Origin: Cystobasidiomycetes sp. EMM_F5
Taxonomy: Eukaryota
Length of the DNA: 32,179 nt
Assembly: GCA_051047955.1 (NCBI GenBank)
Contig: JBPGPT010000048.1
Coordinates: 62,001-94,179 of the forward strand
Direction of reading: 5' to 3'
Part shown: positions 7,549-32,179 of the stretch, one piece after another
Layout: every line of letters starts with the position of its first letter
How positions within the stretch are numbered: the stretch's first letter is position 1
Notes under the pieces: model-generated
Seen by the model: the letters and a program-made list of their open reading frames with translations, nothing else
Database searches by the model: none
Told to the model about the DNA's origin: nothing
Translations under genes and position numbers: made by a program

Positions 7549-9246
7549 ATGATCAATGTCTTTTGCAAATGTTTCATCAGTCTTCTCCTCGCAGCAACAA
7601 CGCTCGTCTCCGCAGCTCCTTTAGTCGAGCAGAATAAACGAGACGTCCACCTCGAGGGGTCTACTCAGATCCTTACTGGCTTCTCTGCCAAGATCAACAT
7701 TGCTGCTTCGACGAACATCATCTGGCTGCCAAATGGTGCACCTTCAACAGTCACGGTAGTGCCAACGACGACGGTGACAGCAGCGACTACGACAATAACC
7801 AGCACCGCGGCTACAACAACAATCTTGCAGACGGTGACATCTGCAGTTACAACTACGGTGTTGTCGCAAGCCTCTCAGGCGGTCTTCTCAAGCATACCGC
7901 AGACTAGCTCGTCTCCATCAAAGCCCGCTGCTTCAGCTTCGGCGTCAGTTGCGCCATCGACCGGCTCCTCATCACCATCCGGTGCAATCAACGCAGTCTA
8001 CTATCCTGATTGGATAGCTGGCTCATTGCCTCCCTCGGCCGTGGACTATACGCTCTTCGATGTCATCTACTTCTGTGCGCATATCACTACTCATATTGTT
8101 GACAACATCTGCTGACTGTGCTGTCTCACAGCATTTGCTATCCCAGACAACAATTTGGGTCTATACTTCACCCAGGACAACTCGATCTCAATTCTTCGAG
8201 ATCTAGTGACGAGGACCCACGCAGCCGGCAAGAGAGTGTGCATCACCATCGGCGGATGGACGGGCAGCCAATACTTTTCTAATTCAGTCTCGTCCGACGC
8301 GAATCGCCAGACCTTCGCTTCCAACATCGCAAAAATGGTCAGTCTGTACGGCGTTGATGGTGTCGATCTAGACTGGGAATACCCAGGTCAAGCGGGCGCA
8401 AGCGGCAACATCATCACCAACAATGACTCTGCGAACCTTTTACTCTTCTTGCAAGTTCTGCGCCAAAAGCTGGGTAGTAGCAGTATCATCTCGTTAGCTA
8501 CTCCCCTCAACGTATGGTACGGCAACAATGGTCAGCCGATGAAGGACGTCTCGCAATACGCGCAATACATCGACCATGTCCTTTTGATGAACTATGATGT
8601 TTGGGGAGCGACAAACGCACCGAATGCTCCCTTGTCAGTGTGTGATGTCAAGACATCGTCGCAGCCGTACGCCAACGCGCAAGGTGGCGTAGCTGCTTGG
8701 AAGGCTGCTGGTATGCCCGCCAACAAGATCATGCTGGGTATCGCATCGTACGGATACGTCGCAAGCTCTTCAGCCACTACATTGAACCATCGTCGTCGGT
8801 CGCTCTTCAACGTGATGGAGGTAGCTCGCGAGAAGGCAATGAAGACTCGCTCACAGCAGGTTTTGAGCAATGCTCGACTGATACACAGTCGATTGGCACG
8901 CGAACGCATCCAAGAGCGAGGCGTCAACCTTGCTTCTTACGCTGGTTCATCCATCGAGTTTTCGGCAATCATGGACTCTGGCGCTCTGGCCTATAGCGCA
9001 ACCGCCGGCTGGTCCGGCCAGAACGGCTATACGCAGAGCTGGGACACTTGCAGTCAAACACCTTACTTGTACAATACAGACGCCTCCATCGTCGTGACGT
9101 ACGACGACACTAAATCACTCCAGCTCAAGGGTAACTTTGCTGCTCAACAAGGTTTACGCGGATTAGGAATGTGGGATATCTCGGGCGATACAGATAGTTG
9201 GATTTTGACAAAGGCCGCAAGGGCCGGACTTGGGCTGAGTTCATAA
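7549..9246 (+). CDS. Secreted GH18 chitinase; exons 7549-8074 and 8132-9246
   Basis: Signal peptide, KR site (EQNKR), T/S-rich linker, then YYPDW, ITIGGWTGS, catalytic DGVDLDWEYP, LMNYD, LGIASYG, WD..SQTPYL, YDD and GLGMW. Intron GTGCGC...GCTGAC...CAG at 8075-8131. Confidence 0.93.
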
Positions 9247-10821: not shown

Positions 10822-12802
10822 ATGATTCCGCTGCCCGACGAGCTGCTGCACTCTCTCGCATCATGGCAGCCAGTGTACGCCCATCTCAGCGCGCTGCTGC
10901 AGTCGCCGTACCCTCCCCGTTCCATCTTTGTCCACGCTCCGAGCAACCTGGACGTGGCTGCTCAGTTGCTGGCAGCCTGCATGCCCGCAACATATGGCTC
11001 TGACCACTCGCAGGCTGATGTTGACGATATCCCTCATCCCTCAATCCAGTCCTTACTCCCTAGCGCCGTCTTTGTGGACTGCGCAGAAGTCGCGTCGACA
11101 AAGGCACTCTATGGGCGTGTACTCAATACTCTGAGCGGGTGGGGCACAGGCAGATGGGATGATGTCTACGGCGGTGTCGTCAACTGGGACGGAAGGCAGG
11201 ACGGGTATCGCGTCACAAAAGACGGACAACGAAGCACCCCTCGTCTCGTCTGGGACTTGGATAGTACACCAGCACCGCTTGCAAGCACAAACGGAGCACT
11301 GTCCACATCACGCAAAGACGAAAGTCTGTCTGGATTTCTCGAGGGACTCAGAGCTGTATTTGATCTAGGAAAAACAGATAGCCATCCGTCGACCTCTCAA
11401 GATCCGCCCCGCTTTATAGTCCTGGTCAATGCCGACCGGCTTTCACAGATTGAGACTATACAAGCAGGGCAGCCAGAGGGGATGCTGCTGGCGGTATTTA
11501 TGCGCATAGGCGAGCTGGTGCGTCATTCGGCAGTCAGTCTTCATAGCTGTAATACAAATTCATGTCTATCAACAGACTGGAAAGCCCATCACGCCTATAT
11601 TAGTATCTTCGATAGACTGGCTCCTGCTCCGCCCGCCTCGGGGTGCGACGGAGCCAGCTGCCGTCATAGACATCCCATCTTTGGGCTCGAAAGGTTTGTC
11701 AGGAATGTAATGCACGCACAGGCTTTGCTGACCATCATATCTCTCACAGACATTTCGGACTTTTCGTATCACACTCTTGTGCACACGCTCTCCGTGCCTA
11801 CTATCAACTCGACCGACGCACCAGAGCGCTTGCATAGTGCTTTGCGGCTTATCATCAGCCTACTTCAACCCGTGTTCGAGCCATACTACGGAGACGAGTT
11901 GTCACCATACCTCTTTCTGATTGACAAATGCTGGCCAGAATGGTATGCTACCTTTCTACGAGATGGTGGTACGTCTGGCATCCAATACAGCGTAGCCAAA
12001 GCTGAATCAAATGCCACCTCCAACAGACGATGGCTACTCTCCGCGCGTGTTTTCCGCATTCAAACCGATTCTGACAAGGGAACTTGACCTTGTGGCCGAG
12101 CTACGGCCGTTGGTCAGCGCCCCACAAGCACAAGATACTCAGTCCCACACAGCTTCCAGCTCTTTCGAGATGGCTGTCTCACCAAGCAAGCGTCCTACCG
12201 ACAATGGCGTTGTAGAAGGCATTCGCTCTCATGCAGACACACATCTCCAGACGCCGCCGCAAGAAAAGTTGGCAATGTCTCTACCAGTCATTGCGAAATA
12301 TCTCATCATTGCTGCATTTCTCGCGTCTGCAAATCCTAGCAAGACCGACATACTCATGCTCGCAACGGCCGAAGATGAATTTTTAGCAAGCAAGAGGCGA
12401 AAAAAGAAGGGTGGTGGAACGCGCAAGACACCTACGAAACGAGCTGATGCAAACAGAAAGGAGAAATTGCCACAACGCTTGCTTGGTCCGAAACCTTTTC
12501 CCATCGAACGGCTACTGGCAGTCTGCGAGTGCATCTTGCCTGTGGAATTGCGTTATCTTGCGCATGGTCCTGATATCCTGCATCAAGTAGCTACGCTCAC
12601 CAGCCTTAGGTTCTTGACCAAGACTTCAATGGGCGCCACGAGCTCAGGTCTGTCTGGTGCTGCGTCTGGCGGTAGTTTTTCTGCCTTTGACAGGCTGGAC
12701 AATATCAAGCTCAAGTGCAATAATCTGGAATTGGAACTCGTCGAAACGCTCGGTAGGAGTGTCGGATTCAAAGTAGCAGAGAGGCTGTGGGAAGCATTGT
12801 AG
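10822..12802 (+). CDS. ORC5: Origin recognition complex subunit 5; exons 10822-11517, 11576-11693, 11750-11968, 12027-12802
   Basis: The C-terminal segment LPVIAKYLIIAAFLASANPSKTD...RLLGPKPFPIERLLA...VATL...LD.IKLKCN matches the ORC5 C-terminal domain. The N-terminal part is AAA-like (VDC.E......LY.R.LN.L). Three phase-compatible GT-AG introns. Confidence 0.88.
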
Positions 12803-15624: not shown

Positions 15625-18538
15625 TCACTTGTGATAAGCAGAATAGTATCTGTCAAAGTCTCTTTCGTGGAGTTTTGCTGCAAAAATTGGCGGAGGTCGC
15701 TTCGGAGTCCCGCTCAACTCGTCCAGAACTCCTCGCCAATATTTGCGTTTGCTTTGCTTGCCGACTGTAGAGTCTGCCTTCCGTTCGTTGCTTCTGACAG
15801 TGTCGTTCTTGCGGTGTAGTCGCGTGCGGGGAGGTGTCTGTGACGGAAAGAACACGGAATTCAAGGTGGATACGCTAACTGACTGAGGAACTTCGGTAGG
15901 GGTATGCGATGATATGCTAGGCGGGACGTTCGTGTTGATGCGCAATCTAGGAATAGGCCTACGCCTGGCCTGAAACAAGCCTTGTATGTTGGTAGCCTGC
16001 CTTCTATCGGTGCCGTCGTTGACAGGAAGAATGCCTGTGCCAGTACTGGGACGACCTTGCGGCCATGTGGCATTGCTTTGCGAAGTTGTAGAGCCAGCGG
16101 ATGGCCGCACTGGAATAGCAGAAGAGCTAGGCAACGCGGCGTTGCCGGCCCCGGTAGTGCTGACATTGTCGACTATTGTGCCCGGAGTGGTCGGCGTTGT
16201 GAATCGAACAGTAGCTGGTGCTCTCTGAGAATTACTTGGCAATCTAGACTGGCTACCAGCATTACTGGGTGTACGATGACTGCTGCTTGCTCGACTGTCG
16301 TTATTTGCTCCTGACATTATGGGAGCAGTCGTGGCTGGTCGCCTCGTAGTGGTAGACGATGTCACAGTTGATGCTGTAGGAATTAGTGGAGGAATCGCAC
16401 CCGTAGATACCAAAGGGGGAGAATTGCGGTGTTGGGGAGTTCGACCACTTTGTGTCCGACTCTGGCTACTTCTGACGGATGAGGTAGGCATTGGCGCAGG
16501 CGTCGGATGTCTTGGTGGCAGAAGTGGAGGAGTCACACCCGCAGACGGTTGTGGGGATCTTCTCGAAATTCGATTCTCGGCACCTGTCTCTGAGGTTTGC
16601 CTTGGTCCAATTTGACTGCCGATACCAGCATTGCTGCCGTTGCGGCTGCCACCCCTAGTCGAGCCCACTTCAGACGTATTAGCATCTGCTTGTTGCACGA
16701 TTGCTGGGCTTCTCGGAGGGAGTGAAGGCTGGCTAGCGGCAGGAGTTGGGAAGCTTGATCTAGTCGACTGATGCGTCTGCCCGCGCTGTGAACTTGCTAT
16801 GTTCTGGCCAGTCGGAGTTGACGAACTGCTAAGACGATTTTGAGATGCCCAACAAAGACATTACATTGTAGTTTGCGAATCACAGACAATGTGAATCGGG
16901 TCAGCGGGAGTCTGGCTAGAGGCTGACAGAATTGCACGAACCTGCTGGGCATAGGACTCAGGTGGACTAGACCACTACCACCCAGATTATAGCCGCCAGA
17001 GGTATCGGAGTCCCGGTTGGGCGATGACACTGTAAATGGCATTCCACCAGCAGGAAGCGGTCTGCCAGAAGGAGTAGGATTCCTGCGTCCGCCCTGGATA
17101 GCGCCTGAAGGCGCATCCGCTACTCGAACGTGCCCATCCTCACTTCCAAGCGATCGGCGCTGAGGATGCCCGCGAACTGCTTCTACCCTCAGGCCTGGTG
17201 ACACATGGAACATCCTTACTCCAGAATTGTCACCTGAACCATCGTCAACACCGAAAAGGCATTCTTCACCATCGTGTGTCTGCAGATCGATAACATCGCC
17301 TCGACGAACGGGAAAGGTGAAAGAATATGAAGTCGAAGTATCTGACGATGCCTATGTAATGATAGAACTGTCAGTTATCATTATGACCGGAGCTCAGGGT
17401 GCGGAACGGACTTGCGAAGTCGTGGTATATCCGGCGGCAGCAGAGGGTGTCTGTATGTCTCGTCTCGTCATCTGCATTTAAACCGGGTCTGTCCGTCGGA
17501 ATGCTAGCTGCACAGGGAAATGGATCTTACCGACGATTCACCAGTGGGGACCTGAGTCGGGAAAGGGGCAGACATGTACCGCGTATTTCCAGTCGGTCGC
17601 CTCGTCACGTAGTCGTTCCACATAATTTGGTAGAGCTCTTGCGGGATGACAGCTTCAAATGTCCGTCTGCCCCGCCAATATATTTGGTCTGGTTGGCGTA
17701 GTTCCTGGGTAGTGCGCTGCCGCTCAATGACGATTGCTCGACCCTCATCATTGCCATTGAGTATATACGAATGTTCTTGATCGTAGATATCCCATCTGCC
17801 ATCAGGGCCATCCGGGAGTCTGAGGGAGCGGTTGTGCAACACGCGTTCTGTGCCCGCCTGTGAATAATATTCCGGCTCGGACGATCTGTGGGAACCGGAA
17901 TCCCACGATTCCGTGCTTGAGTTGGACGATGACCGGTTCTCTGCCTCATCGAGCAGTTGTTCGCCAGCTAGAGATGACTCGCGTGAGCCCGATCCCGTCT
18001 AGTTCTCTCATTATCAGCTGTATAGCCTACAGTACCTCTGATACGGTTACGCTAACCTCTATCCAGCTCCTCGTAGAGAGATCATTGTCTCGAAAGATAA
18101 GTTGCGGTTTTTGAGGCTCATCCACTTGCTGTGGAGACGGAGTATGAGCCTCGTTGATTCAATGCCAGCAGGCACACTTACTGGACCCGTACTAGGCGCC
18201 GTACCTCTAGAGCGCATTGCCGTCGGGTAGGTGCTCCATATTTTTGGGGATCTAGTCGGCCCATACGCTGAGACGGGTGAATCGCTATGACATTCATCAG
18301 CCCCAAAGGTCAGTGCTTCCCTGAATAACGAGCATACTGACGTGTAGTGATCTCGACTACGACCAGCTGCGCTGGAGATCGCGACACTTCCGGGATACTC
18401 ATCTGCAGCGTCATCCTGGATGAGCAGTTCGTCACGACGGTAGCCATTCTGGCGACGGTGGAAGCTTTCAGCGTCGTCGGAGCTCCCGCTGTTGCTCCGT
18501 GGGCGGCTGTTTGCAGATCGCGAGGGTGAATGTCGCAT
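15625..18538 (-). CDS. Orphan paralog A (~837 aa), S/T/P/R-rich low-complexity protein with one 'NGN' domain; exons 18538-18342, 18284-18182, 18128-18057, 17998-17531, 17471-17412, 17351-16942, 16828-15625
   Basis: Six GT..AG introns join the ORF-track fragments (18059-18622, 17504-17842, 16797-17213, 15625-16698) into one frame with consistent phases. Shares motifs with the two adjacent genes at higher coordinates (B and C). Confidence 0.7.
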
Positions 18539-19074
18539 GCTTCTGGACTGAATATGGGCAGCGTAGCAACGAGATTGACTCAGTGACGATAGTCTTCGGT
18601 TTGGGTATGGTTGGCCAGACAAGGCGCAGCTAGGTGGGAGAAGAGACTCTCTTCTAGTACGCTGAGAGAACGAATGTGCGCGAGAGTATGACCTTGACCA
18701 GCAAGATGCTAAGGGGCTTTACGGAGAAGCGAGAGTGGGAGGATCAGCGGGTGGAGACTAGATGAGAAGCGCATTCCCTGGGCCTTTGCAGCAGCTACGA
18801 AAGTTGTCAGAGCAGTACAGCATCCTCAGCATCGCATGCTTCCGGCCAGCAGCCATCATCTCAGCACAATGGACAACGGGACGTCTGCAGTCCTTTGACG
18901 GCGACTGCACCGCTTCACACCGGGACGACTGCGGTGAGCAGTGCAGCAGTGCAGCTCTCCAATCAATGGCGTAGTGTCCGATATGGCAGCCAGTATAGTA
19001 TCCTCGTAAGGCTACGACTATGAGCTCAGCAGCACTAGTCAGATAGGGTCCATATCTTCCCGTTGAAGCTCAGA

Positions 19075-19099
19075 CATTGCATTGCATTGCATTGCATTG
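19075..19099 (+). repeat. (CATTG)5 microsatellite
   Basis: cattgcattgcattgcattgcattg in the intergenic region between paralogs B and A. Confidence 0.9.
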
Positions 19100-19362
19100 C
19101 TGCAGCATCATCATCTCTCAAATGCATTGTCGTCTTTTAGAATCCATGTTCGAGAGCGGTCACACTCGTACACGGCAGCGGCGAAGCGGATGCAAAAGGC
19201 GTTTCAAACATGATTATATGGCAACTGCAGACAATAGATAACTCTCCTCTCGCTCGGAGTCGTCGATGGCTTTCGATTCGTCCCATATCAACGAATGGCT
19301 CTATGCGCACACAAAGCGGGGCAGGCACCTCAGGCCAAGTCGCATGGCAGTAAAATTATCGA

Positions 19363-21805
19363 TTATCGGTATGCACGTCGCACTGTGCTGCCTAGTATAG
19401 GCTGCGCCCGCGACCCTGCAGTGTGAGCGCCACTCATAACATCAATAAATTGTCGAAATTTCGCACCAACCGTCTTGCGATTGGGTCCTCCAGTGTCTGA
19501 CCTATCAACTACCGTTTTGGCAGTGGTTTTGCCGGCCGAGCGCAATACTAACGGCTGCTTTGGCCTGGCATTTTGAGAAGCGGAGACGCCGAGTGAGTCT
19601 GGAGCTTGATTTCTGGCTCGGGCCGGGATATAGTAGGAGTGTCGGTGTGAGACCACAGACCGGCGGTCGTTTGTGGTTCCGCTATCAAACGAGGATAGGC
19701 TTGTGCTCCCACCTCGTCGCACCCTATCATACGGGCGCTCCTCTACCGTGTAATTCGTCTTACGCAGAGATCTTGGCGGTCGATATTCAGGCCGAGTTCC
19801 GTAGGGTGACCATGAGGGATTATTAGTACGCCGACTGTTTGTCAATCTATCCCTGGATGCCGACGAACGTGGATATGATGGTTGGCTAGACACGACCTGG
19901 TGCCTTGTGCGATAGCGGGTTTCGTAGCCGCCTATTGCCGCCCCGAAACTGCCGATTGACGTTGGAATATACACATCGCCTAACGAAGACAGGCTGTCAC
20001 GCTGTCGTAGTCGGTCATGCAAATCCTGGCTACTGCTGGAGGATGATGAGAGGGATTCGCCGGTCGGCCTACGCAAGCGTGGTACCGGATGCTGGTTGCT
20101 GTCTGTCTGATTGTTCCGGCCGTGCGACCCAACGGATGATGCAGGTGTTGTTGAGGACTGCTCGGGTGACGGCGCGAATTCAACGCGTCGTCTTCTTGCT
20201 CTCAGTCTACCTGGCTGCCCGACCGGAGGGCCCGTGTCTGACTGATTGTTGAGATCGGTCAAGAGTTCGACGGGTGTTAAATGCTGACTAGAGGGCCTCC
20301 TTATGATTTCCGTGCTTGGATGAGGTGTACTTGGTCGAGCGGAAGACCCGGGGGTTGCCTGAGTGCCCACAGGACGTAAAGGTTGAGGACTTAGCAAGTG
20401 AGGTCTGCGTTGTCGACTATATATACCAAGAAGAGCCTCATTACTGGACGGACGTGATGGAGAAGACGATGACGAAACGCGTTGTTCTCTGGTCAGGAAA
20501 TGCGGAGAAGCGACATTTTGTGGGTCTTGTTGCTTTTGTCGGTCGCCTCGCCTCACACGCACATAGACATTTGGTGGTATCACGGGCGCTTCTACTCTGA
20601 GCGTGCCACCCTCACCGGGATGCACAATTGCTTGGACACCACCGTGCGGGGTTTGTATGTGAAGTGGTCGCCCAGGATCAATAGGAACCTCTTCTGTGTA
20701 AAAGCCTGGAAGTTCTGTTTCAGATACCTGCGGAGATCAGTGCGTCAGCAACCGAACAATGTGTCTCACGTGGAAACGGTAATTCACCGGCGATGCCGTG
20801 CCCACGCTGTCTCTCCTTGCTCTGTCCCCACCGTCCCGCTGTGTACGGCTATTTCTGTCGGATCCGGAATTCGTGCTACCGAAAACAAGGTCATGCAATT
20901 CCGGCGGAACAATGTAATTTGTGTTGGAGCGAGGAGCGGACGCAATACTTGCGGGGCGCCAACCGCTCGCTTGGGGGTCGCTCAGCCAGGAAGAAGGTGT
21001 CTGGACGCGCCTGATGTTCGTGGAAGCAGTTGCACAGGTTGTTAGTGTGTCAGTCAATGTCTACGCTTCGGATTCGTCGTCCAACGTACGAATTAGCTCG
21101 ACTTCGTGTAGAACGATCGCCTTCACTCTCTACACTCTGCGTGCGCTGTTGCATTTCGAGCTCCTGGTAGAGCGCTTGGTCTATATTAATAAGCACCGCC
21201 GGTCGGCCACGCCAGGTATGCACATCACGCCGCGATGACTCTGCAGGTTGGATCGATCGTTTGAGCACTGCGATTGCGAGGTTTTCCGGATTACCATTGA
21301 ATAAGTATCGGGCATCTCGTGTAACATACTCCCAGGGTTCGTGCGGTCCAGCAGGGAGCTCTAAATCTGGGAGGCCTGCAAGCTCGACAGCATTTTCATC
21401 GTCGTAGTTCCACTCCAAAGATGGTGTATCGCTGACGTCGGATCGACTCCTATGCGAAGACTCTCCGCTATCGTATGTCGTTTCAGAAGAAGACTGGTGC
21501 AATATATGATTAGCTGCACGGCCGGGCTTTTGCAAGAGTATGCAGCGTCTACGCACTGATGTCCGAAGCTGATGTGAATCGGGATCTTCGTGGCCGTGGA
21601 CACTGGGTGCTTGGACCGGCGACACGGAGGGCTGCCTAGGCAGAGACCCTCTCGTTTCAGAGCTGGACGCAGCATCGTCTGCGGAGGGTCTGCGAGCACT
21701 TATGTTGCTGTTTGCATTTGAGAGATTGCTCCGAGTTCTCGCACGTAGGCTGGAGCTGCGATCACTTTCTACATAGGCCTGGTGTGGGTTGCCTGGACCC
21801 GACAT
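19363..21805 (-). CDS. Orphan paralog B (~752 aa), S/R/P-rich protein with one 'NGN' domain; exons 21805-21557, 21493-21090, 21010-20770, 20727-19363
   Basis: Phase-consistent GT-AG introns (the last is only 42 nt) join ORFs 21050-21805, 20737-21057 and 19363-20625. Contains LPAGPHEPW..RYLFNGNPENLAIAV..WRGR..LYQ. Confidence 0.7.
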
Positions 21806-22540
21806 GCTAATGCAATGAGTACTGTGGTGAAGCGCTACTCCCTCCTGTTAGGCAGCGGTATAACTCTCTTTGGGTAAAATTCCAGCACTTACAATGGAGG
21901 GAAAGGTATTGATAGTGAGCGGGGTGTTGCAGACTTGGGACTGGTAGATAAGCTCAGGCCTGACCGGCAGACTGAGTACACAGAATTCGATGACAATTGG
22001 AGAGGAGATGCGCTTGAAGGAGTGCACCCTCTCGCCCGCCTTCGAGTGTGCAGTGCGGTAGGTTGCCGTGCCCATCAAGGGAGTTCATTGTCCGAACAAG
22101 GGCACAGCCGGCACACAGGACTGCCAACCTCTCCCGTTGATACGAGGCGAGTCTGCCCTGCCATTGTTTTGAGGTATGAAAGGCCACGTCCATTGTGCGG
22201 ACTTTACCCATGTCACCGTATCAAACGGCGATGCAGCAGGCATTCCTGCAGCTCAGCTCAGCTCACGTCCTTCAATTTCAGCACCAGTTTGCATCAGCAT
22301 CAGCTTGCATCAATGTTAGCACATCTACTTCAAGGCCACTCTTCAGCCAGAAGCATCCGAACAGTAATATGTCCAGCAACGATGACCAGACGAAGAGCGA
22401 CAGCCAGCCTGCAGCTCAGCATTCGTGGCAGTCCTGCTCAACGCAGCGCAACATGGATTGGCAAAGACGCAAGACTCGCTCAACTCGATGACGGCGACCA
22501 AGCCAGTTGCTGCCAGGTCTTTCTGCTACAACAGGCCAAC

Positions 22541-25500
22541 TTAATGCGCTAAGACAAACGACGACATGTGTGATCCAAGGCCAAGGGATCGCGGAGTGCC
22601 AGAATATCGCAGGCCTCTGCTTCCTCGAGTGGAATTCCGCTGCGCACGATTAGAGCGAGGTAGCGTACTCAAAGGCGCGCTGCTTGTAGCGCTTCTCCTC
22701 CGACTGGATCTCTTCATTGGCTGCTCCTCCCAGTGGGCAACATCCGTTCCATAGATGGCCTTTGCTCGAGTATGTTCATTCTGCACGCCACCCATCACAT
22801 CCGCTACCTCTATGAACTTGTTCCAGGCGCGTTTTCCCTTCCCGTTGGAAGACTTGGAAGACTCGGAAGACTTGGACGACTCGGAGGACGTTCTGTTGGT
22901 TCTATTTCCTCCCCGACCTGGATCTGCATCTTCTCGGACCCGGGGTTGGTACCGTTCTGCATTCGGGGCGTTCGACAGGCTGGCCATCGGTCCAGCTCGT
23001 CTATCAGCCTGAGGGTGGTACCATTCTGCATTCGAGGCATTCGACAGGCTGGCCATCGGTCCAGCTCGTCTATCAGCCTGAGGGTGGTACCAATCCCTGT
23101 TTGAGGCCTGTGATATACTTTCTGTCAATCGCGATATTCTTGGAATAGTCGTCAAGTGCGCTGCACTCTGCCGGGGAGAGATAGGAGGGTCATCGCGACC
23201 CGTTGCAATTCTTCCCCCGCCCGCATAGGGATCGACAGCAGCAGTTGACCGAGCGCCGAAAGAGAAGCGGCCAGAAAACAAAGACGGAGATGGTGCTGCT
23301 GCACCCAGCGGAGTATTCGCAGTATAGTCTCCTGGCGGCGGGCCTCCCACTACGTCGGGAGGCGCTCGAGAGGGAGAAGCAGAATAGTCTGAGCCCCGTC
23401 GACGCCGCCTAAAGAATGGTGTGCGAGGGAATGGCGTTCCGGGCGCTGCTGCCGGGCCGTCCAAGCCCGTTACGGCTTCAGTGGGTCTGATACCGGTCGC
23501 GACAGTCACCGGAGTTGGACTGCCACGGCGGATGCTTGCGGATGGTGTAGGGTGCCCGTTAGCACTGCTCACCACGGACTCTACTCTCACACGTCGATCC
23601 GGACGAGGGGTCGACGCAAGGCCAGGCTCTGAATGTATGGATGTTGTCGACCCGATACGATCCCGCTGAGCGGATGAAGGACGCTGGGTTACAGGTTGCG
23701 GCGTCGTTGTTGGAGCCGAGACGGCTCTCCTCCTTGCCTCGCTCGTCTGGCTTGTTTGGCTTGCCTGGCTTGCCTGGCTAGTTCGTCGAGGTAGTTCGCC
23801 GCCTGTATTTGTTGCACTGCAAAGAGACCATTGGAAAGATGAGACAGAGATGTCAGCATATGAACCAACTGCATCTGAATGACATGCATCTCACGTTTGG
23901 GTCTGCTGCGTGTTCACTTGGACTGTGCTCCCCGCTTCGCTGGCCCTCGCGGAGCCGCTGCGTCGTCGATGCGTGTCTGTGACGGGCGTCGGAACCCGTC
24001 CAGTCGTCGGAAGAGGAGGGACATCGGGCCCCGCAATCGCCGAGGATGGACGTCGAATGCTGCCAAGCGATGCGCGAGAACCCTGCGGGCGGACAGTACG
24101 TGCAGGATCACTAAACACGGTCTCGCCAGCCACGTGGCGCGAAAGTGCATCTTGTGCTGCTTGTAGCCTCGACGTGCCTGAGGGCCCCGCCACCCCGGTC
24201 TGCGGTAGCTGTAAGTCTGGCTGCCGGGTTGACAACTCTGGATCTGAACCCTCGCGCAGTCTATAACGAACTTGCACATTGGAAGGCGCTTCTAGTACTT
24301 GCTGGCCCGTGACTCGCCCATTATCGTCGCGCAGTACTCGTATTTGCACGGGGTCTCGCCGAGGGATGTCAATTTGCAGCACCGATTGCGATGAATGCAG
24401 AGACATGGCTGCGGAAAAGTTAGACGCATGCTCCGGAGATACTGCGCGCTGCTAATTCTCCAATTAGCGATGATTCTAGGGGCAGCAGCGTAACAGAACC
24501 TTACCCAATTGCTTGGGCCAGCGACGGTCTGTGCAGCCGCATTATTTGATCACGAGTGATGTAGTCAAGTCAGATCAGCGTTACTTGACAGAAAAGTCAA
24601 CATAGCCGCACCTCATCACTGGTATTCAAGGCATCTTGTGCAGTCTGATGCGCCGGAACGCCCGGTGGTCTTGTTTGATCCCTTTGGCGGCGTCGGTATT
24701 CTCTGTTTGGACCCGGTGTGGAGGAGTTATAATCTGGATTGGACGTATTTGAGGTTCCGCCTCCTGGACGGCCACTGTTGACGGAAGAGCCCGGATGCAC
24801 ACCGGTAAAACCGTTGTTGGGAGAATCGTTATGCACTGGCGGGGGTGGTGGTGCAGCTGCGCGGCCATTCTGTCTCTCTGCCTCTTCTCTTCGGGAGCGC
24901 GATGCTGGATTTGTATCCAGTAGCTGTTGATAATGGTCGTTGTCGAGTTGCCGGACGGTGGCTTCACGCCCGCGCCAATACGTGCTGTTATGAGATCGAT
25001 CTTCCGCTGGCGTAACGTGCCTATTGACTGCAATCACCTCATTGCGGTCATTGCCGTTCAGTATATACCGATGGGCCCGGCTTGCAGTGTCCCAAGGCTC
25101 ATCGGAACCTGGTGGAAGAACGACGTTTGAACGGCGAGCGAGTTCTACGGCGTTGTCGCGCTGCCAATCGTAAATTATGTTCGAACTCAGCTCTGAGTCT
25201 GTAGCATTCCTGCTGTTACCGCTGCCGCTTGAGTGATTGCTGGCACTGACGCGACTTCCTCCACCAACTGAGCTCCCTTCGGCTTGTTCACGTAAATAAG
25301 CATTTCTCCATCGCTGATATTCCTCCGGTGTTACCTCTACGACATCGATCTCGTGTCCGTTCAAGTACTCAATCTCAGATGATCGGCTTGCTGTACTCCG
25401 CCGCCTGCCGTCTCGACGGGCACGATAAAACTGAATGGCCCAGCCATCGCCATTACCATTCAGAATGTACAGGAATCGTGACGTCGTATGGACCCATGGC

Positions 25501-26336
25501 CGATCGGGCCCTCTCGGTATATCGATATCGTCGCAATCAGGTATCCAGACAACATTTTCGGAACCCAATCGAACTCTTTCCTGAATATCGATCCAATCCA
25601 GCAGGGGCGACACAGTGTTCTCGGCACAAGATCCGACTTGAGACTGGTTATATTCCGATGCTACGTGACGACTTGCTGAGCTCTGGGGACGAATGTTTGG
25701 GTTCAGCTGTTCCGAGCCGTTGAAACTTGATTGACGTGAAGTACGGATATTCATATCGTCTTCCTGGCCTCGTTCCGGCTGTTGCGGCGTAGGTGCGTGT
25801 CTGCTGCCGCTTGCGCGACTGCTGCGACGTGTGGAGTGGCCGGAGCCGGCTGGGCCGCGAGGCAGCCCCTGTCTCCACCGCTCCTCCGTGCCTTCAGGCA
25901 GCTGCACAATCCGCACATGTCGGTCTTGGAAGTACGCTTGGCCGTATTCATGAAGGGAGGAAGGGCGACCATTTACTTCAATTGCCAGTCTTTGCTCGTT
26001 GCCGTTGACGATATAACGGAAGTCTGCTGTATTATGAATCAAAGGCTCATAGCGCCCGGCAGGTAGCGCAATGTGTCCAACGTCTTTTCCGCTCACATCA
26101 TACAAACGAACTCTATTGTCGTTGCTGTCGTACGATAAAGCGCTTCCGATATCACTTGGGTCATAGCCAGCGGTCAATCGTGACTGCCTGTCGGTCTCGG
26201 ATGGGGGTGCTTGCGGACTCGAGGACCGCGTAGATCGATCCCGTTCATTGAGGGCTTGCAAGTTTGCAGCGCTCAGACCAGTGATGGCCGATCCACTGAC
26301 TGGCGGAGCGGGTGGGGAGGAAGATGTACGGGACAT
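22541..26336 (-). CDS. Orphan paralog C (~1193 aa), S/R/P-rich protein with three 'NGN' domains; exons 26336-24612, 24528-24505, 24451-23895, 23816-22541
   Basis: Phase-consistent introns, including a 24-nt micro-exon, join ORFs 24597-26336, 23891-24406 and 22541-23590. Three copies of Y(I)(V/L)NGN. A further in-frame 57-nt intron near 25581-25637 is possible. Confidence 0.72.
22846..22888. repeat. Imperfect 9-bp coding tandem repeat (SSE/SSK)n in paralog C
   Basis: ggaagactt ggaagactc ggaagactt ggacgactc ggaggac, encoding SSESSKSSESSKSS on the minus strand. Confidence 0.8.
22948..23091. repeat. Near-perfect 69-bp coding tandem duplication (23 aa, WYHPQADRRAGPMASLSNASNAE) in paralog C
   Basis: Units start at 22948 and 23017 (ggtacc..cctgagggt) and differ at about 3 positions. 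A partial third unit starts at 23086. Confidence 0.92.
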
Positions 26337-26802: not shown

Positions 26803-29566
26803 ATGGGCCGACCAGCGCCCAGACTACGCCGAGGCCGCATCGAAACATGGGAGAGTGGTCGCAGATTTGGCATTGTCGTCGACGCGGGCTCGTCGGGCTC
26901 GCGACTTCAAATCTACAGCTGGCTCGACCACGATATCGCTAGGGCAGCCCGCACGGAAGCCGGGCACAGCAGCGCAGTACTGCCGCGTATCGAGAAGGGC
27001 GTCGAGCATGGCGAGGCGTGGACGCTAAAGGTGGAGCCAGGTGAGCGGGGTTTTGGTATGGTCGCCAAGAGCTGGCCAGGATATTGGACGGTCGAGCTAT
27101 GGAATGGGCCTCATTTCGCTGATGCACCGTCTACCTTTTGTTCTTGTTCATGTTCTTCCTCTGTTCTGTCGCCGTCTCCGCTTTCCGGTCTCACATCCAG
27201 GCATATCCTCGTTTTCCGGCAGACCTCAAGATGTCGACGGCTACCTCGAACCGCTGTTCAGGCATGCTCGCGACCATATTCCTCCCTCACAGCTGGCGAG
27301 TACGCCCGTCTACATCCTCGCGACCGCTGGAATGCGCCTCCTTGCCGAGAGCGACAGTAGGGCTATTCTCCGACAGGCGTGCAAATACGTGCAGTCCAGC
27401 ACGCCCTTTCGAATAAAAGACTGCGAGAGCAACGTCCGAATCATATCGGGCGAGGAAGAGGGCGTATATGGTTGGGTCGCTATAAACTACCTCATGGACG
27501 GATTCGACAGTCACGGCATTGCAGACAAAGGCCAAGAAAAGCATTCCAGCACGTACGGCTTTCTCGACATGGGCGGAGCATCTACGCAAATCGCCTTTGA
27601 GCCTAGCACGCTTGCCCGGAAGGAACATGCAGACAACCTGCTAGACGTCAACCTCCGGCTCCTCGATGGCGCAGACGTCCATCACCCCGTCTTCGTTACA
27701 ACCTGGTTGGGCTACGGAACAAATCAAGCCCGAGAACGCTACGTGGATGCTCTCCTCCACTCTCACAAGCTTCAACATCCCGAAGAGCAGGCCGAGCATT
27801 CTGCGTCGACCTCGGCTACCGAGCTGCCCATGCGTATCGTACGCGATCCCTGCCTTCCGTCCAACCTCATGCTCAATGAGGTGCGCTATCCCGGCACGGC
27901 TCTGCAGGGTACTGGAGACTTTGCGCAGTGCATGACGCTCACGTCTCCTCTTCTCAACCGGGAAGTACCATGTCCGGACGAGCCCTGCATCATGGGCGTG
28001 CACGTCCCGCCGATTGATTTTTCCGTTAATCACTTCATCGGGGTCTCTGAATACTGGTATTCTACTCAGGAGTTGTGGTCGTTGGGCGGAGTGTACGACT
28101 TTCAGACTTTTCAGAAGAGTGCCTTGGAATACTGTTCCCAAGACTGGAGCGCCATTGAGAATTCACACACTATAGGTGGATCCAAGCCAGTAGACGTACA
28201 TCGTCTGGAAATGCAATGCTTTAAAGCAGCTTGGATAGTCAATGTTTTACACGAAGGGATTGGCATTCCTCGACTCGCCTTGGACCGTATCCCAGTATCA
28301 GGAACCAACGAAACGGAAGAAGCCCTTCGGAAAGCGGGTGAGAAGGGGTTCGCAGGCGTTCCACCGAACTTTCAGAGCGTCAACGAAATAAACGATGTAG
28401 CTGTCAGTTGGACCCTCGGCCGTATAGTCCTCGAAGTGACAGACAGTATCCCACGCTCTCGCATTCCCAGCCAAGCACATAGCCACGGCGAAGCTGTTGA
28501 TACTCCTGCATTCGAATGGAAGCATGGGTACGCCAGCAACACTTGGGCTAATACACTGTCCCGGAGTATGCAGTACGTGTATTATCCTCTGAACCCAGTC
28601 ACGCTCTGCGTTCTTGCAATACTCGTTGGCATCTTGTATCGATGTGCTTGTCGCACTGCTTGGAGCGGCAAGAGAAGCTCGGCACGGCCACCCGGCGAAG
28701 CATACGGTCTCCTGTCTATGGAAGAAGGAATGCAGGAGCACGGTGATGGCGCGAGCGACGGAATGTCTTCGCCTGTAAAGCACTCTAATGCTGTCATGCG
28801 GTCGCTGACTCCGCTTCGACTACTTGCCTCGCGTGCGTTGCACATCGTTGGTCGTCAAGGTCCTAACCAAACATCCTATCTCCCGCTCACGCAACACACT
28901 ACTAGCGCAACGGCTCTTCCCACCCGCCCTATATCGTCAAGCGTACTCTCTGGCAGCCCTTCTGCTGTCCGCCCGTCCAAAAATCTGCGACATGTCGCAT
29001 CGTCTCCTGCTATATTTCGTAATTCTTCACCATTCAAAATAGCTCTTCCGGCTTCGTCCTCCTTGTCGTCGTTGACAATGGCCAAGGGCAAATCGGGAAG
29101 AGCACGTCTAGATCCATCCAATACTAATCTAGGATACAGCGATACGGATACTCCTCCTATCACACCACCGGCACGGAGCAATAGTCCAGCTTGGCTTCTG
29201 CGCACAAAGACCATGTCTCCTCGTACCACTGTCAACGGGACAGCCTTCTCGCTGCATGGGCGGAGCAACTCTACCAAGAGTGCGTCTGGTCATCGGAGTT
29301 ACCCATCCTCGGGCTCGGAAGCAGAGGGGCATCTGTCGGTCCCACCAACCGGACCGCCTACGATGCCTTGGACGCGCGACACGCCTGAAATAGACAGCGA
29401 AGGTATTGTATGTGCACCGACGCTGGTCGCCAGCTTTGGACCCGACGATGTGCCAGCTTTGGGATTGCGGTCTCGGAATTCCAGTTATACCAACTTGAAC
29501 GGTCTGGCCAGATTGAGGGGTGGTCACATCCGGCAAGGCTCTACGTATACGGACGTGGGGCTGTGA
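26803..29566 (+). CDS. YND1: Golgi apyrase, GDA1/CD39 (E-NTPDase) family; exons 26803-27040 and 27201-29566
   Basis: Apyrase conserved regions DAGSSGSR, ATAGMR, ISGEEEGVYGWVAINY, GFLDMGGASTQ and VSWTLG. A single C-terminal TM helix (VTLCVLAILVGILY) and a long Ser-rich cytoplasmic tail match Ynd1 topology rather than Gda1. Confidence 0.9.
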
Positions 29567-30510: not shown

Positions 30511-32179
30511 ATGCTCGCAATGGTGCGCCTTTCGGCCGCCATCCTCGGCTTGGCCGTAACGCAGGCCGCGTCGGCCGCCGCAGGAATTGCTGGAGATGTT
30601 GTTGCACAGATACCTCGAGCTGCTGTCGATCCGAACACATCTCATGCCACCGCTGGTCCCGCAAGCCTAAAGGAACGTACATTTAGTTGGGGCGGTTGGG
30701 GCGGTTCGGGAAGGTGAGCGACTTATCGATCAAGATACACACTGCAAGGTTCTGACGCTGTATGGTGCTTTGTCCTCAGTAATCCTTATTTAAGCGATCC
30801 TTCGAAGTAAGCCGAAACCGCAATAAACCTTGAGTGTCACGAGACTAAAATCCGGCTATGTATCAAACAGCTGCGGTTCGGCTGGCAATAACTGCGAGCA
30901 GAATGCTGGAGGTGGTTGCCAACGCGGTTCAGGCTCCTGCAATAATGGCGCATGCTCCGTTACGTGCCAATCGGGCTATACTGCTGATAGTAATGCAATC
31001 TGTCAGCCAAATTGCAAAGACGGCTCGTACAGGGACAATTCTGGTGCTTGCGTGCGCTGTGAGTCTCGTCTCCAGGTGTTTATCACGATGTGTGACTGAA
31101 TTTGTTGTTCATATAGATCAATGCTCCACTTCCGCTCAGTGCATACAGTCAACCGGCATATCTAATTCTTTCTGCTACCTTTCTCAATGCTACGCTCCGT
31201 CGTCCAGTAAGATGCCTAATCGTGAAAGCACGGCCGAATACTGATCTCCGGTCGATAGATGCGGATGGCTTAGCTCTAAACTCAGCATGTGCCGTTAAGA
31301 AGCCGCCAAATGGCGACGATAATAGCTGCGATACCGGCATGGTCTGCTTACAATACAAGTGTCAGGCAGCAACGTCTCTGGACTCTGGCAATTGCGGCGC
31401 CGCCGGAAATAAATGCCCAACTCCTGGTCAAAACAACGTCGTTAGCAGCTCATGCCAAAACAGCGCCTGTGTGACTACATGTTCCTCCAACTATGTCTCC
31501 TCGACAGACGGCAAGTCTTGCCTTCCGAGCGATATCAACAACTGCGGCAGCACAGGGAAGAAATGTCCTGTAGCTGGTCAGAACGGAGTAGCGACCAGCC
31601 AGTGCCCCAACGCAAAATGCGTCTTGACATGTTCGTCCGGGTACGGGCTTTCATCAGACGGCCAATCCTGCGTCGGAAACACCGTCAACAACTGTGGCAC
31701 ATCCAGCACGAAGTGCGCTACCCCTGGTCAGAACGGCGTTGCTACTAGTCAATGCACAGCTGGCTCCTGTACAGTAACCTGCTCGCAAGGTTTCGCACCC
31801 TCGCAAGATGGGGCATCGTGTGTTGGAAACACCGTCAACAGTTGTGGTGCTTCCGGCGCAAAGTGTGCCGTTGCCGGTCAAAATGGCGTCGCTACCAGCC
31901 AGTGCTCAGCTGGAAATTGTGTTGTGACCTGTTCGCAAGGCTATGCACCTTCTCAAGACGGCAAATCGTGTGTCGGAAACACAATCAACAGTTGCGGCAC
32001 ATCCGGCACGAAGTGCGCTACCCCTGGTCAAAATGGTGTTGCTACTAGTCAATGTACAGCAGGCTCTTGCGCAGTAACCTGTTCGCAAGGGTATGCACCC
32101 TCGCAAGACGGTTTATCATGTGTTGGAAACACAATCAACAGTTGCGGCACGTCTGGCACGAAGTGCGCGACCCCTGGAC
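30511..32179 (+). CDS. Secreted Cys-rich repeat protein (PriA/CPL1-like 'NCG..G.KC' modules), truncated by the window end; exons approx 30511-30713, 30780-30806, 30871-31058, 31117-31206, 31259->32179
   Basis: Signal peptide MLAMVRLSAAILGLAVTQAASA and phase-consistent GT-AG introns. The last exon is open to the window end and encodes 50-aa units with 6 Cys (NTVNNCGTSSTKCATPGQNGVATSQCTAGSCTVTCSQGFAPSQDGASCVG). Confidence 0.8.
31375..32179 (+). repeat. 150-bp coding tandem repeat, at least 5 units
   Basis: ggaaacac..tcaaca recurs at 31675, 31825, 31975 and 32125. More degenerate units start near 31375 and 31525. Confidence 0.93.

Follow-up and report, generated by a model that had tools for sequence, protein, structure and literature searches.

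The stretch of DNA analysed here (the window) covers 32,179 nucleotides of contig JBPGPT010000048.1, with a G+C (guanine plus cytosine) content of about 53%, and comes from Cystobasidiomycetes sp. EMM_F5, a basidiomycete yeast of the Pucciniomycotina. Three tandem, co-oriented and intron-containing paralogs, called here genes A, B and C, lie on its minus strand, and they encode long, basic, S/T/P/R-rich proteins that carry, close to the N-terminus, a small domain in one copy in A, one copy in B and three copies in C. This domain is the subject of the present work, and the label that suits it best is that of a new domain family, lineage-restricted and without a significant fold match. The window contains few long open reading frames (ORFs), which are interrupted by short GT...AG introns with CTAAC or CTGAC branch sites, and the fungal context of the paralogs follows from these introns, from the domains found in the neighbouring genes and from the lineage of the source.

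Gene A (15625..18447, minus strand) encodes a 750-amino-acid product, P0006, which is a "hypothetical protein" in GenBank and whose five exons in the deposited model map exactly to the window (18447-18343, 18122-18057, 17998-17531, 17351-16944 and 16827-15628). The first two of these exons are in a different frame from a long S/R-rich ORF at 18059-18718 on the same strand. As this ORF also has plausible introns and lies in the other frame, the true N-terminus of gene A is uncertain and the first two deposited exons are doubtful. For gene B (19363..21805, minus strand), exons were inferred at 21805-21090, 21010-20770 and 20727-19363, giving a protein of 773 amino acids, and its two introns (GTACGT...CTAAC...CAG and GTGAGA...CTGAC...CAG) restore a single open frame. 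Gene C (22541..26336, minus strand) was modelled with exons at 26336-24612, 24528-24505, 24448-23895 and 23816-22541, giving 1192 amino acids; its last intron (GTGAGA...CTGAC...CAG) takes out an in-frame stop, and the two introns upstream of it are less secure. The deposited gene C protein, P0004 (NCBI, Logan), consists of the 579-amino-acid first exon alone. This deposited model is probably truncated, because the extension to about 1192 amino acids ends in the C-terminal motif of genes A and B, which is described below.

A preliminary description made from the sequence had reported five copies of an unrecognised domain of about 85 amino acids in these genes, and the minus-strand translations reproduced the peptides quoted in it exactly. 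Copy A, whose N-terminal extension was taken from alignment A2, lies at 17609..17872, copy B at 21140..21421, and the three copies of gene C at 25866..26138 (C1), 25296..25604 (C2) and 24900..25187 (C3), all on the minus strand; the intervals of B, C1, C2 and C3 come from the translations and alignments. In a leave-one-out analysis, in which a profile of four copies was searched against the 824 six-frame ORFs of the window, independent E-values (i-E) of 5.6e-15 (A), 1.5e-18 (B), 3.5e-9 (C1), 1.9e-12 (C2) and 2.8e-23 (C3) were obtained, and the best match outside the three ORFs reached only E 0.11-3.6. No sixth copy was found in the window with the five-copy profile, the next best match having an E-value of 1.6. 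Pairwise BLASTP between the three proteins gave E-values of 2e-8 (A-B), 2e-11 (A-C3) and 4e-16 (B-C3), with no other similarity below E 0.02. As judged from these comparisons, no part of the family other than the domain is strongly conserved.

In a MAFFT alignment of the five copies (A1), the columns are on average 47% identical, and any two copies share 20-41% of their amino acids. The invariant columns are the P and G of P-x-G, the Y, N, G and N of Y-x-x-N-G-N, and a downstream I, as the preliminary description had claimed by eye. The conserved motifs of the family are L-P-x-G-x-x-x-P-W, Y-I-L-N-G-N, A-I-x-V, Y-W-R-G-R and Y-Q. C3 is the copy nearest to the consensus and C1 the most diverged, with W changed to L, YWRGR to YFQDR and YQ to EE, while C2 has insertions in two places, its N-terminal strands and the loop that follows the AIxF strand. 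When the family is defined, for working purposes, by L-P-x-G ... W ... Y-x-x-N-G-N ... I at fixed spacing together with a full-length profile match, all five copies of the window belong to it. The proposed length did not hold, since the extended alignment shows a conserved 'DNAVEL' stretch, forming N-terminal strands, that lengthens the copies by about 10-15 residues and brings the unit nearer to 90-95 amino acids. In gene C the copies occupy residues 69-157, 255-346 and 389-475, and the linkers between them, of 97 and 42 amino acids, are not conserved.

The codons used for the invariant residues vary among the copies (CCG, CCT, CCT, CCG and CCA for the P; GGC, GGA, GGG, GGG and GGT for the G), and nucleotide identity between copies is only 39-46%. 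Such varied synonymous codons and low nucleotide identity point to selection at the protein level after old duplications, and not to DNA repeats.

The composition of the three proteins separates the domain from its surroundings. The whole proteins have an isoelectric point (pI) of 10.3-10.6, and 59-62% of their residues are S/T/P/G/Q/N/R and 11-13.5% K+R. The S/T/P/G/Q/N/R fraction is 62-64% in the flanks compared with 37-47% in the domains, hydrophobic residues make up 29-32% of the domains and 16-19% of the rest, and acidic residues (D/E) 16-17% of the domains and 7-9% of the rest. As the domains contain 9-13% K/R, they are net acidic. The regions outside the domain are presumably disordered, and the earlier suggestion that the domain is embedded in disordered sequence agrees with the S/T/P/G/Q/N/R-rich and hydrophobic-poor flanks.

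A protein family of this kind could also be associated with RNA or chromatin, in which case the domain would bind nucleic acid and provide specificity while the basic tails bind non-specifically. The high pI and K+R content would fit such a role, as would the conserved W-R-G-R turn and aromatic residues, and neither a signal peptide nor a membrane segment was evident in the N-termini inspected. However, the excess of D/E over K/R within the domains themselves argues against nucleic-acid binding by the domain, and no similarity to a known nucleic-acid-binding fold was found in Pfam or in the fold searches. We regard this explanation as rather unlikely.

The preliminary description had proposed that the fold is small and beta-rich, makes a turn at NG and ends in a helix, and AlphaFold2 models are in line with this. 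Copy A (78 amino acids, 5-row alignment) was predicted with a mean predicted local distance difference test score (pLDDT) of 87.9 and a predicted template modelling score (pTM) of 0.75, and has five strands and a C-terminal helix. The extended copy C3 (96 amino acids, 7-row alignment) was predicted with a pLDDT of 84.2 and a pTM of 0.77, and has eight strands (4-7, 13-16, 19-24, 32-35, 39-43, 50-55, 69-71 and 74-80) and a helix at 83-91. The five strands and helix of the model of copy A align with the last five strands and helix of the C3 model. In both models N-G-N forms an inter-strand hairpin loop, which in C3 lies between strands 39-43 and 50-55; also in C3, P-P-G follows strand 19-24 and R-G-R connects strand 69-71 with strand 74-80. 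The conserved motifs therefore fall at predicted turns, strands and helix, which suggests that they define the fold, and their pattern is not like that of a catalytic site. The two predictions drew on largely the same alignment rows and thus do not confirm each other independently.

An alternative reading is that the segment is not autonomous and folds only on a partner or never, and that AlphaFold was made overconfident by the paralog rows. The alignments are indeed shallow, with 5 and 7 rows, and the five models of copy A range in mean pLDDT from 71 to 88. On the other hand, alternating hydrophobic strands, conserved turns (P-x-G, N-G-N and R-G-R) and a discrete unit of about 90 amino acids are typical of a folded module, and this unit has been reused three times in gene C on linkers that are themselves not conserved. 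A non-autonomous segment is, in our view, very unlikely, and the copies are very probably real folded domains.

Known families and structures were searched in several ways. None of the three domain-bearing ORFs matched a Pfam family at E≤10, and no family was matched at E≤1 by P0006, by the remaining exons, or by three proteins from the database search described below (P0007, P0008 and P0022). NCBIfam gave no match below E 0.15. A search of the PDB by sequence gave a best E-value of 0.063 with the A1 profile (NLRP3 PYD, 16.5 bits) and nothing at E≤1 with the A2 profile. Foldseek searches with the two models gave best E-values of 0.4 and 0.57 against the PDB, with a best E-value of 0.2 against BFVD; structure comparison by VIA-align gave a Z no better than 3.8; and in the ESM Atlas the best score was 0.85 with a recognition of 1676, under the thresholds, with some phage-tail-like rows. 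The profile search in Pfam and the combination of AlphaFold prediction with Foldseek had both been proposed as checks in the preliminary description, and their outcome, that is, no family matched and confident models of A and C3 without a significant match in any of the three fold searches, bears out its statement that the domain is not recognised by known families. A literature search for the strings YILNGN, YIVNGN and YLFNGN, the only one made for the motif, found no paper.

Most of the weak rows in the fold searches were beta-propeller blades, alone or in pairs (eIF3b, Elp2, BambL and RSL), and kinase N-lobes. PH-like and polo-box folds appeared in Foldseek rows only, with E-values of 0.4-1.5 and template modelling (TM) scores of 0.2-0.25, and were absent from the top 50 VIA rows. 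The domain could also belong to a known superfold from which it has diverged so far that the searches could not recognise it; the candidates would be a two-blade beta-propeller unit, as in small fucose lectins, or a PH-/polo-box-like or kinase-N-lobe-like sheet with a helix. We consider this unlikely, and judging from the searches of Pfam, NCBIfam and the PDB, the domain probably belongs to no known family.

The copies had been nicknamed 'NGN', which is already the name of the NusG N-terminal domain (Pfam PF02357). The three ORFs did not match PF02357 in the Pfam search at E≤10. Because HMMER's filters remove most matches with an E-value higher than about 0.1, this search would have shown only a real match. 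The likeness between the two domains is limited to the three letters of the nickname, which should be changed as it collides with an unrelated domain.

To determine the distribution of the domain, a set of 1,835,955,588 representative proteins was searched with the five-copy profile at a cut-off of E≤0.001. Only six representatives reached the cut-off, three of which were the window's own proteins P0004, P0005 and P0006. A true distant relative was found in P0008, a 340-amino-acid protein from a metagenome assembly, in which one stretch scored 37.6 bits over profile positions 5-80 and hhalign gave a probability of 96% over 77 columns; a partial first copy is also present. P0022, which is 77% identical to P0008, scored 33.7 bits over the same profile positions. 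Both proteins keep P-x-G, while the Y of the motif is replaced by C and N-G-N by N-N-N. The domain has therefore been seen in three sources, namely this yeast and two other assemblies. A homologue search with gene C, in the range of 318-1014 amino acids, returned gene C itself only. Another with alignment A2, confined to 666-2000 amino acids, returned no protein, not even the 750-amino-acid product of gene A, and so carries no information on the distribution. The remaining two of the six representatives, P0007 and P0009, were rejected as false positives whose scores are inflated by repeats; P0009 is a simple repeat with stretches of 5 bits or less. Three loci (L001-L003) from a scan of JGI metagenome contigs with copy C3 were also rejected, as they match only the seed PPGSDEPW and score at most 8.8 bits with the domain profile.

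P0007, a clostridial extracellular solute-binding lipoprotein, has to be considered separately. Its residues 528-1191 hold six repeats of about 110-120 amino acids, each with Y-(I/L)-G-N-G-N-P, and as these have no relative in Pfam or the PDB they are themselves an unannotated repeat domain. If the yeast domain were related to this repeat, both would derive from an old and widespread beta-hairpin module, and the domain would not be lineage-restricted. The whole protein scores an hmmsearch E-value of 8.2e-11, and all six repeats share with profile positions 3-44, over about 40 residues, the curious spacing (D/E)N-x-V-x-L ... G ... W ... Y-(I/L)-x-N-G-N-P. However, this total is the sum of six mutually homologous repeats, each of which scores only 7.2-13.4 bits, with a per-stretch E-value of 6e3-5e5 for the library. 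Moreover, P0007 aligns to the first half of the domain only, the hhalign probability is 6.5%, and the lack of a Pfam or PDB relative leaves no family through which the two could be compared. P0007 was therefore not accepted as a relative, and a common origin of the two units seems most unlikely.

Taken together, we propose that the five copies are instances of a single undescribed domain, about 90-95 amino acids long, that folds autonomously, is restricted to a lineage and possibly acts as a docking module in disordered scaffold proteins; we give this reading as a whole a probability of about 0.6. As a folded unit of at most eight short beta-strands, closed off by a C-terminal helix, the domain could dock to a protein or perhaps to a nucleic acid. 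It would thereby anchor the disordered tails, giving the scaffold proteins a specific attachment point, and the three copies of gene C, placed on low-complexity linkers, would raise the valency. Docking is suggested by the architecture alone, that is, by a discrete, selected and duplicated unit, by the conservation of turns and core, by the basic low-complexity setting and by the triplication in gene C. The binding or scaffold role is accordingly the tentative part of the proposal, and we put it forward as possible rather than probable.

Several points weigh against this proposal. The binding role is putative, and the conserved W-R-G-R and very basic tails would fit a nucleic-acid role equally well. 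The exon models of genes B and C are predictions from splice consensus and an unbroken reading frame. The structures of copies A and C3 are likewise predicted, from shallow alignments whose rows are mostly common to both.

A bolder version of the proposal can be envisaged, where the domain is a new fold that arose, or changed past recognition, in a narrow basidiomycete-related yeast group, was spread by triplication and tandem duplication, and associates with itself or with other copies, tying the basic disordered proteins into a multivalent network. It is conceivable, as a form of this network, that the three units of gene C, each made of two meanders, pack into one propeller-like body. Such a network appears improbable to us. 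A homodimer prediction of copy C3, run with neither a supplied alignment nor controls, gave 0.00 in two runs compared with a mark of 0.32, with pLDDT below 50 in at least one run, and is counted neither for nor against self-association.

Outside the domain, a weakly shared C-terminal motif of the form K..(W/F)..F(I/L)(D/E)V..(M/L)(S/G)G...R..(P/A)I was observed in the three paralogs. In gene B it reads KFRQFIDVMSG...R..PI (19387..19461, minus strand); its counterpart in gene C lies at 22745-22819 and that in gene A, found by eye, at 15670-15750, both on the minus strand. The B-C match is marginal (BLASTP E 0.024, 40% identity over 25 amino acids). A second short block with the pattern 'ID..P..IQ ... 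(R)VEAP ..V.VR.R.G' was seen by eye after the last domain copy of all three genes (17169-17321, 20542-20727 and 24248-24385, minus strand), and has no statistical support, being absent from the BLASTP matches between the paralogs at E≤10. A counterpart of this block ('GALIVHQASPV') may also be present in P0008 and P0022. The possibility that it is a degenerate half-copy of the domain was rejected, based on an hhalign probability of 0.3% and the lack of a BLASTP match between the paralogs.

The tails contain R-R-x-S/T sites, nine in C, four in B and one in A. As R-R-x-S/T is a typical consensus of basophilic kinases, these sites suggest that the disordered tails may be regulated by phosphorylation. 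The tail of gene C also holds a 69-bp tandem duplication at 22947-23092 (2.1 copies, 96% match), which encodes a repeated 'EWYHPQADRRAGPMASLSNA.NA' peptide, and microrepeats of 9 and 18 bp in the same gene, at 22845-22889 and 23733-23779, encode SSESSK and SQASQ runs. Between genes A and B, at 19075-19100, there is a perfect (CATTG)5 microsatellite.

The neighbouring genes, all on the plus strand, encode a GDA1/CD39 nucleoside phosphatase (27041-29566), a GH18 chitinase (8155-9246), an ORC5 C-terminal domain (12011-12802) and a CPL1-like Cys-rich protein (31222-32178). Such genes have ordinary roles in fungi, in housekeeping or in the cell wall, and a functional link between them and the three paralogs was not evident.

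If the fold is confirmed, the domain would represent a compact family without a relative in sequence or structure. Lineage-restricted folded domains of this kind can serve as test cases for the origin and multiplication of new folds, here through internal triplication and tandem gene duplication, and the domain also marks out a set of long disordered proteins for functional work in a poorly studied class of fungi. The practical weight is modest, because no function is attached to the domain and fungi that have been sampled sparsely commonly yield orphan families. Nevertheless, a small, confidently predicted and unmatched fold with both internal and tandem duplication would be a reasonable target for structure determination.

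Among known systems, the clostridial repeat of P0007 differs from the yeast domain in that its second half is unrelated, and in that P0007 is a secreted bacterial protein whereas the yeast proteins are fungal and probably intracellular. The two-blade propeller lectins BambL (PDB 3zw0) and RSL (PDB 4csd) and the blade pairs of WD40 proteins and eIF3b also count among the closest known systems. Small modules such as SH3, PH and polo-box domains occur embedded in disordered scaffold proteins. No sequence similarity or significant structural similarity between these modules and the yeast domain was found; the likeness lies in their architecture, as they too are compact, beta-rich units of up to 100 amino acids, set in disordered scaffolds and sometimes present in several copies.

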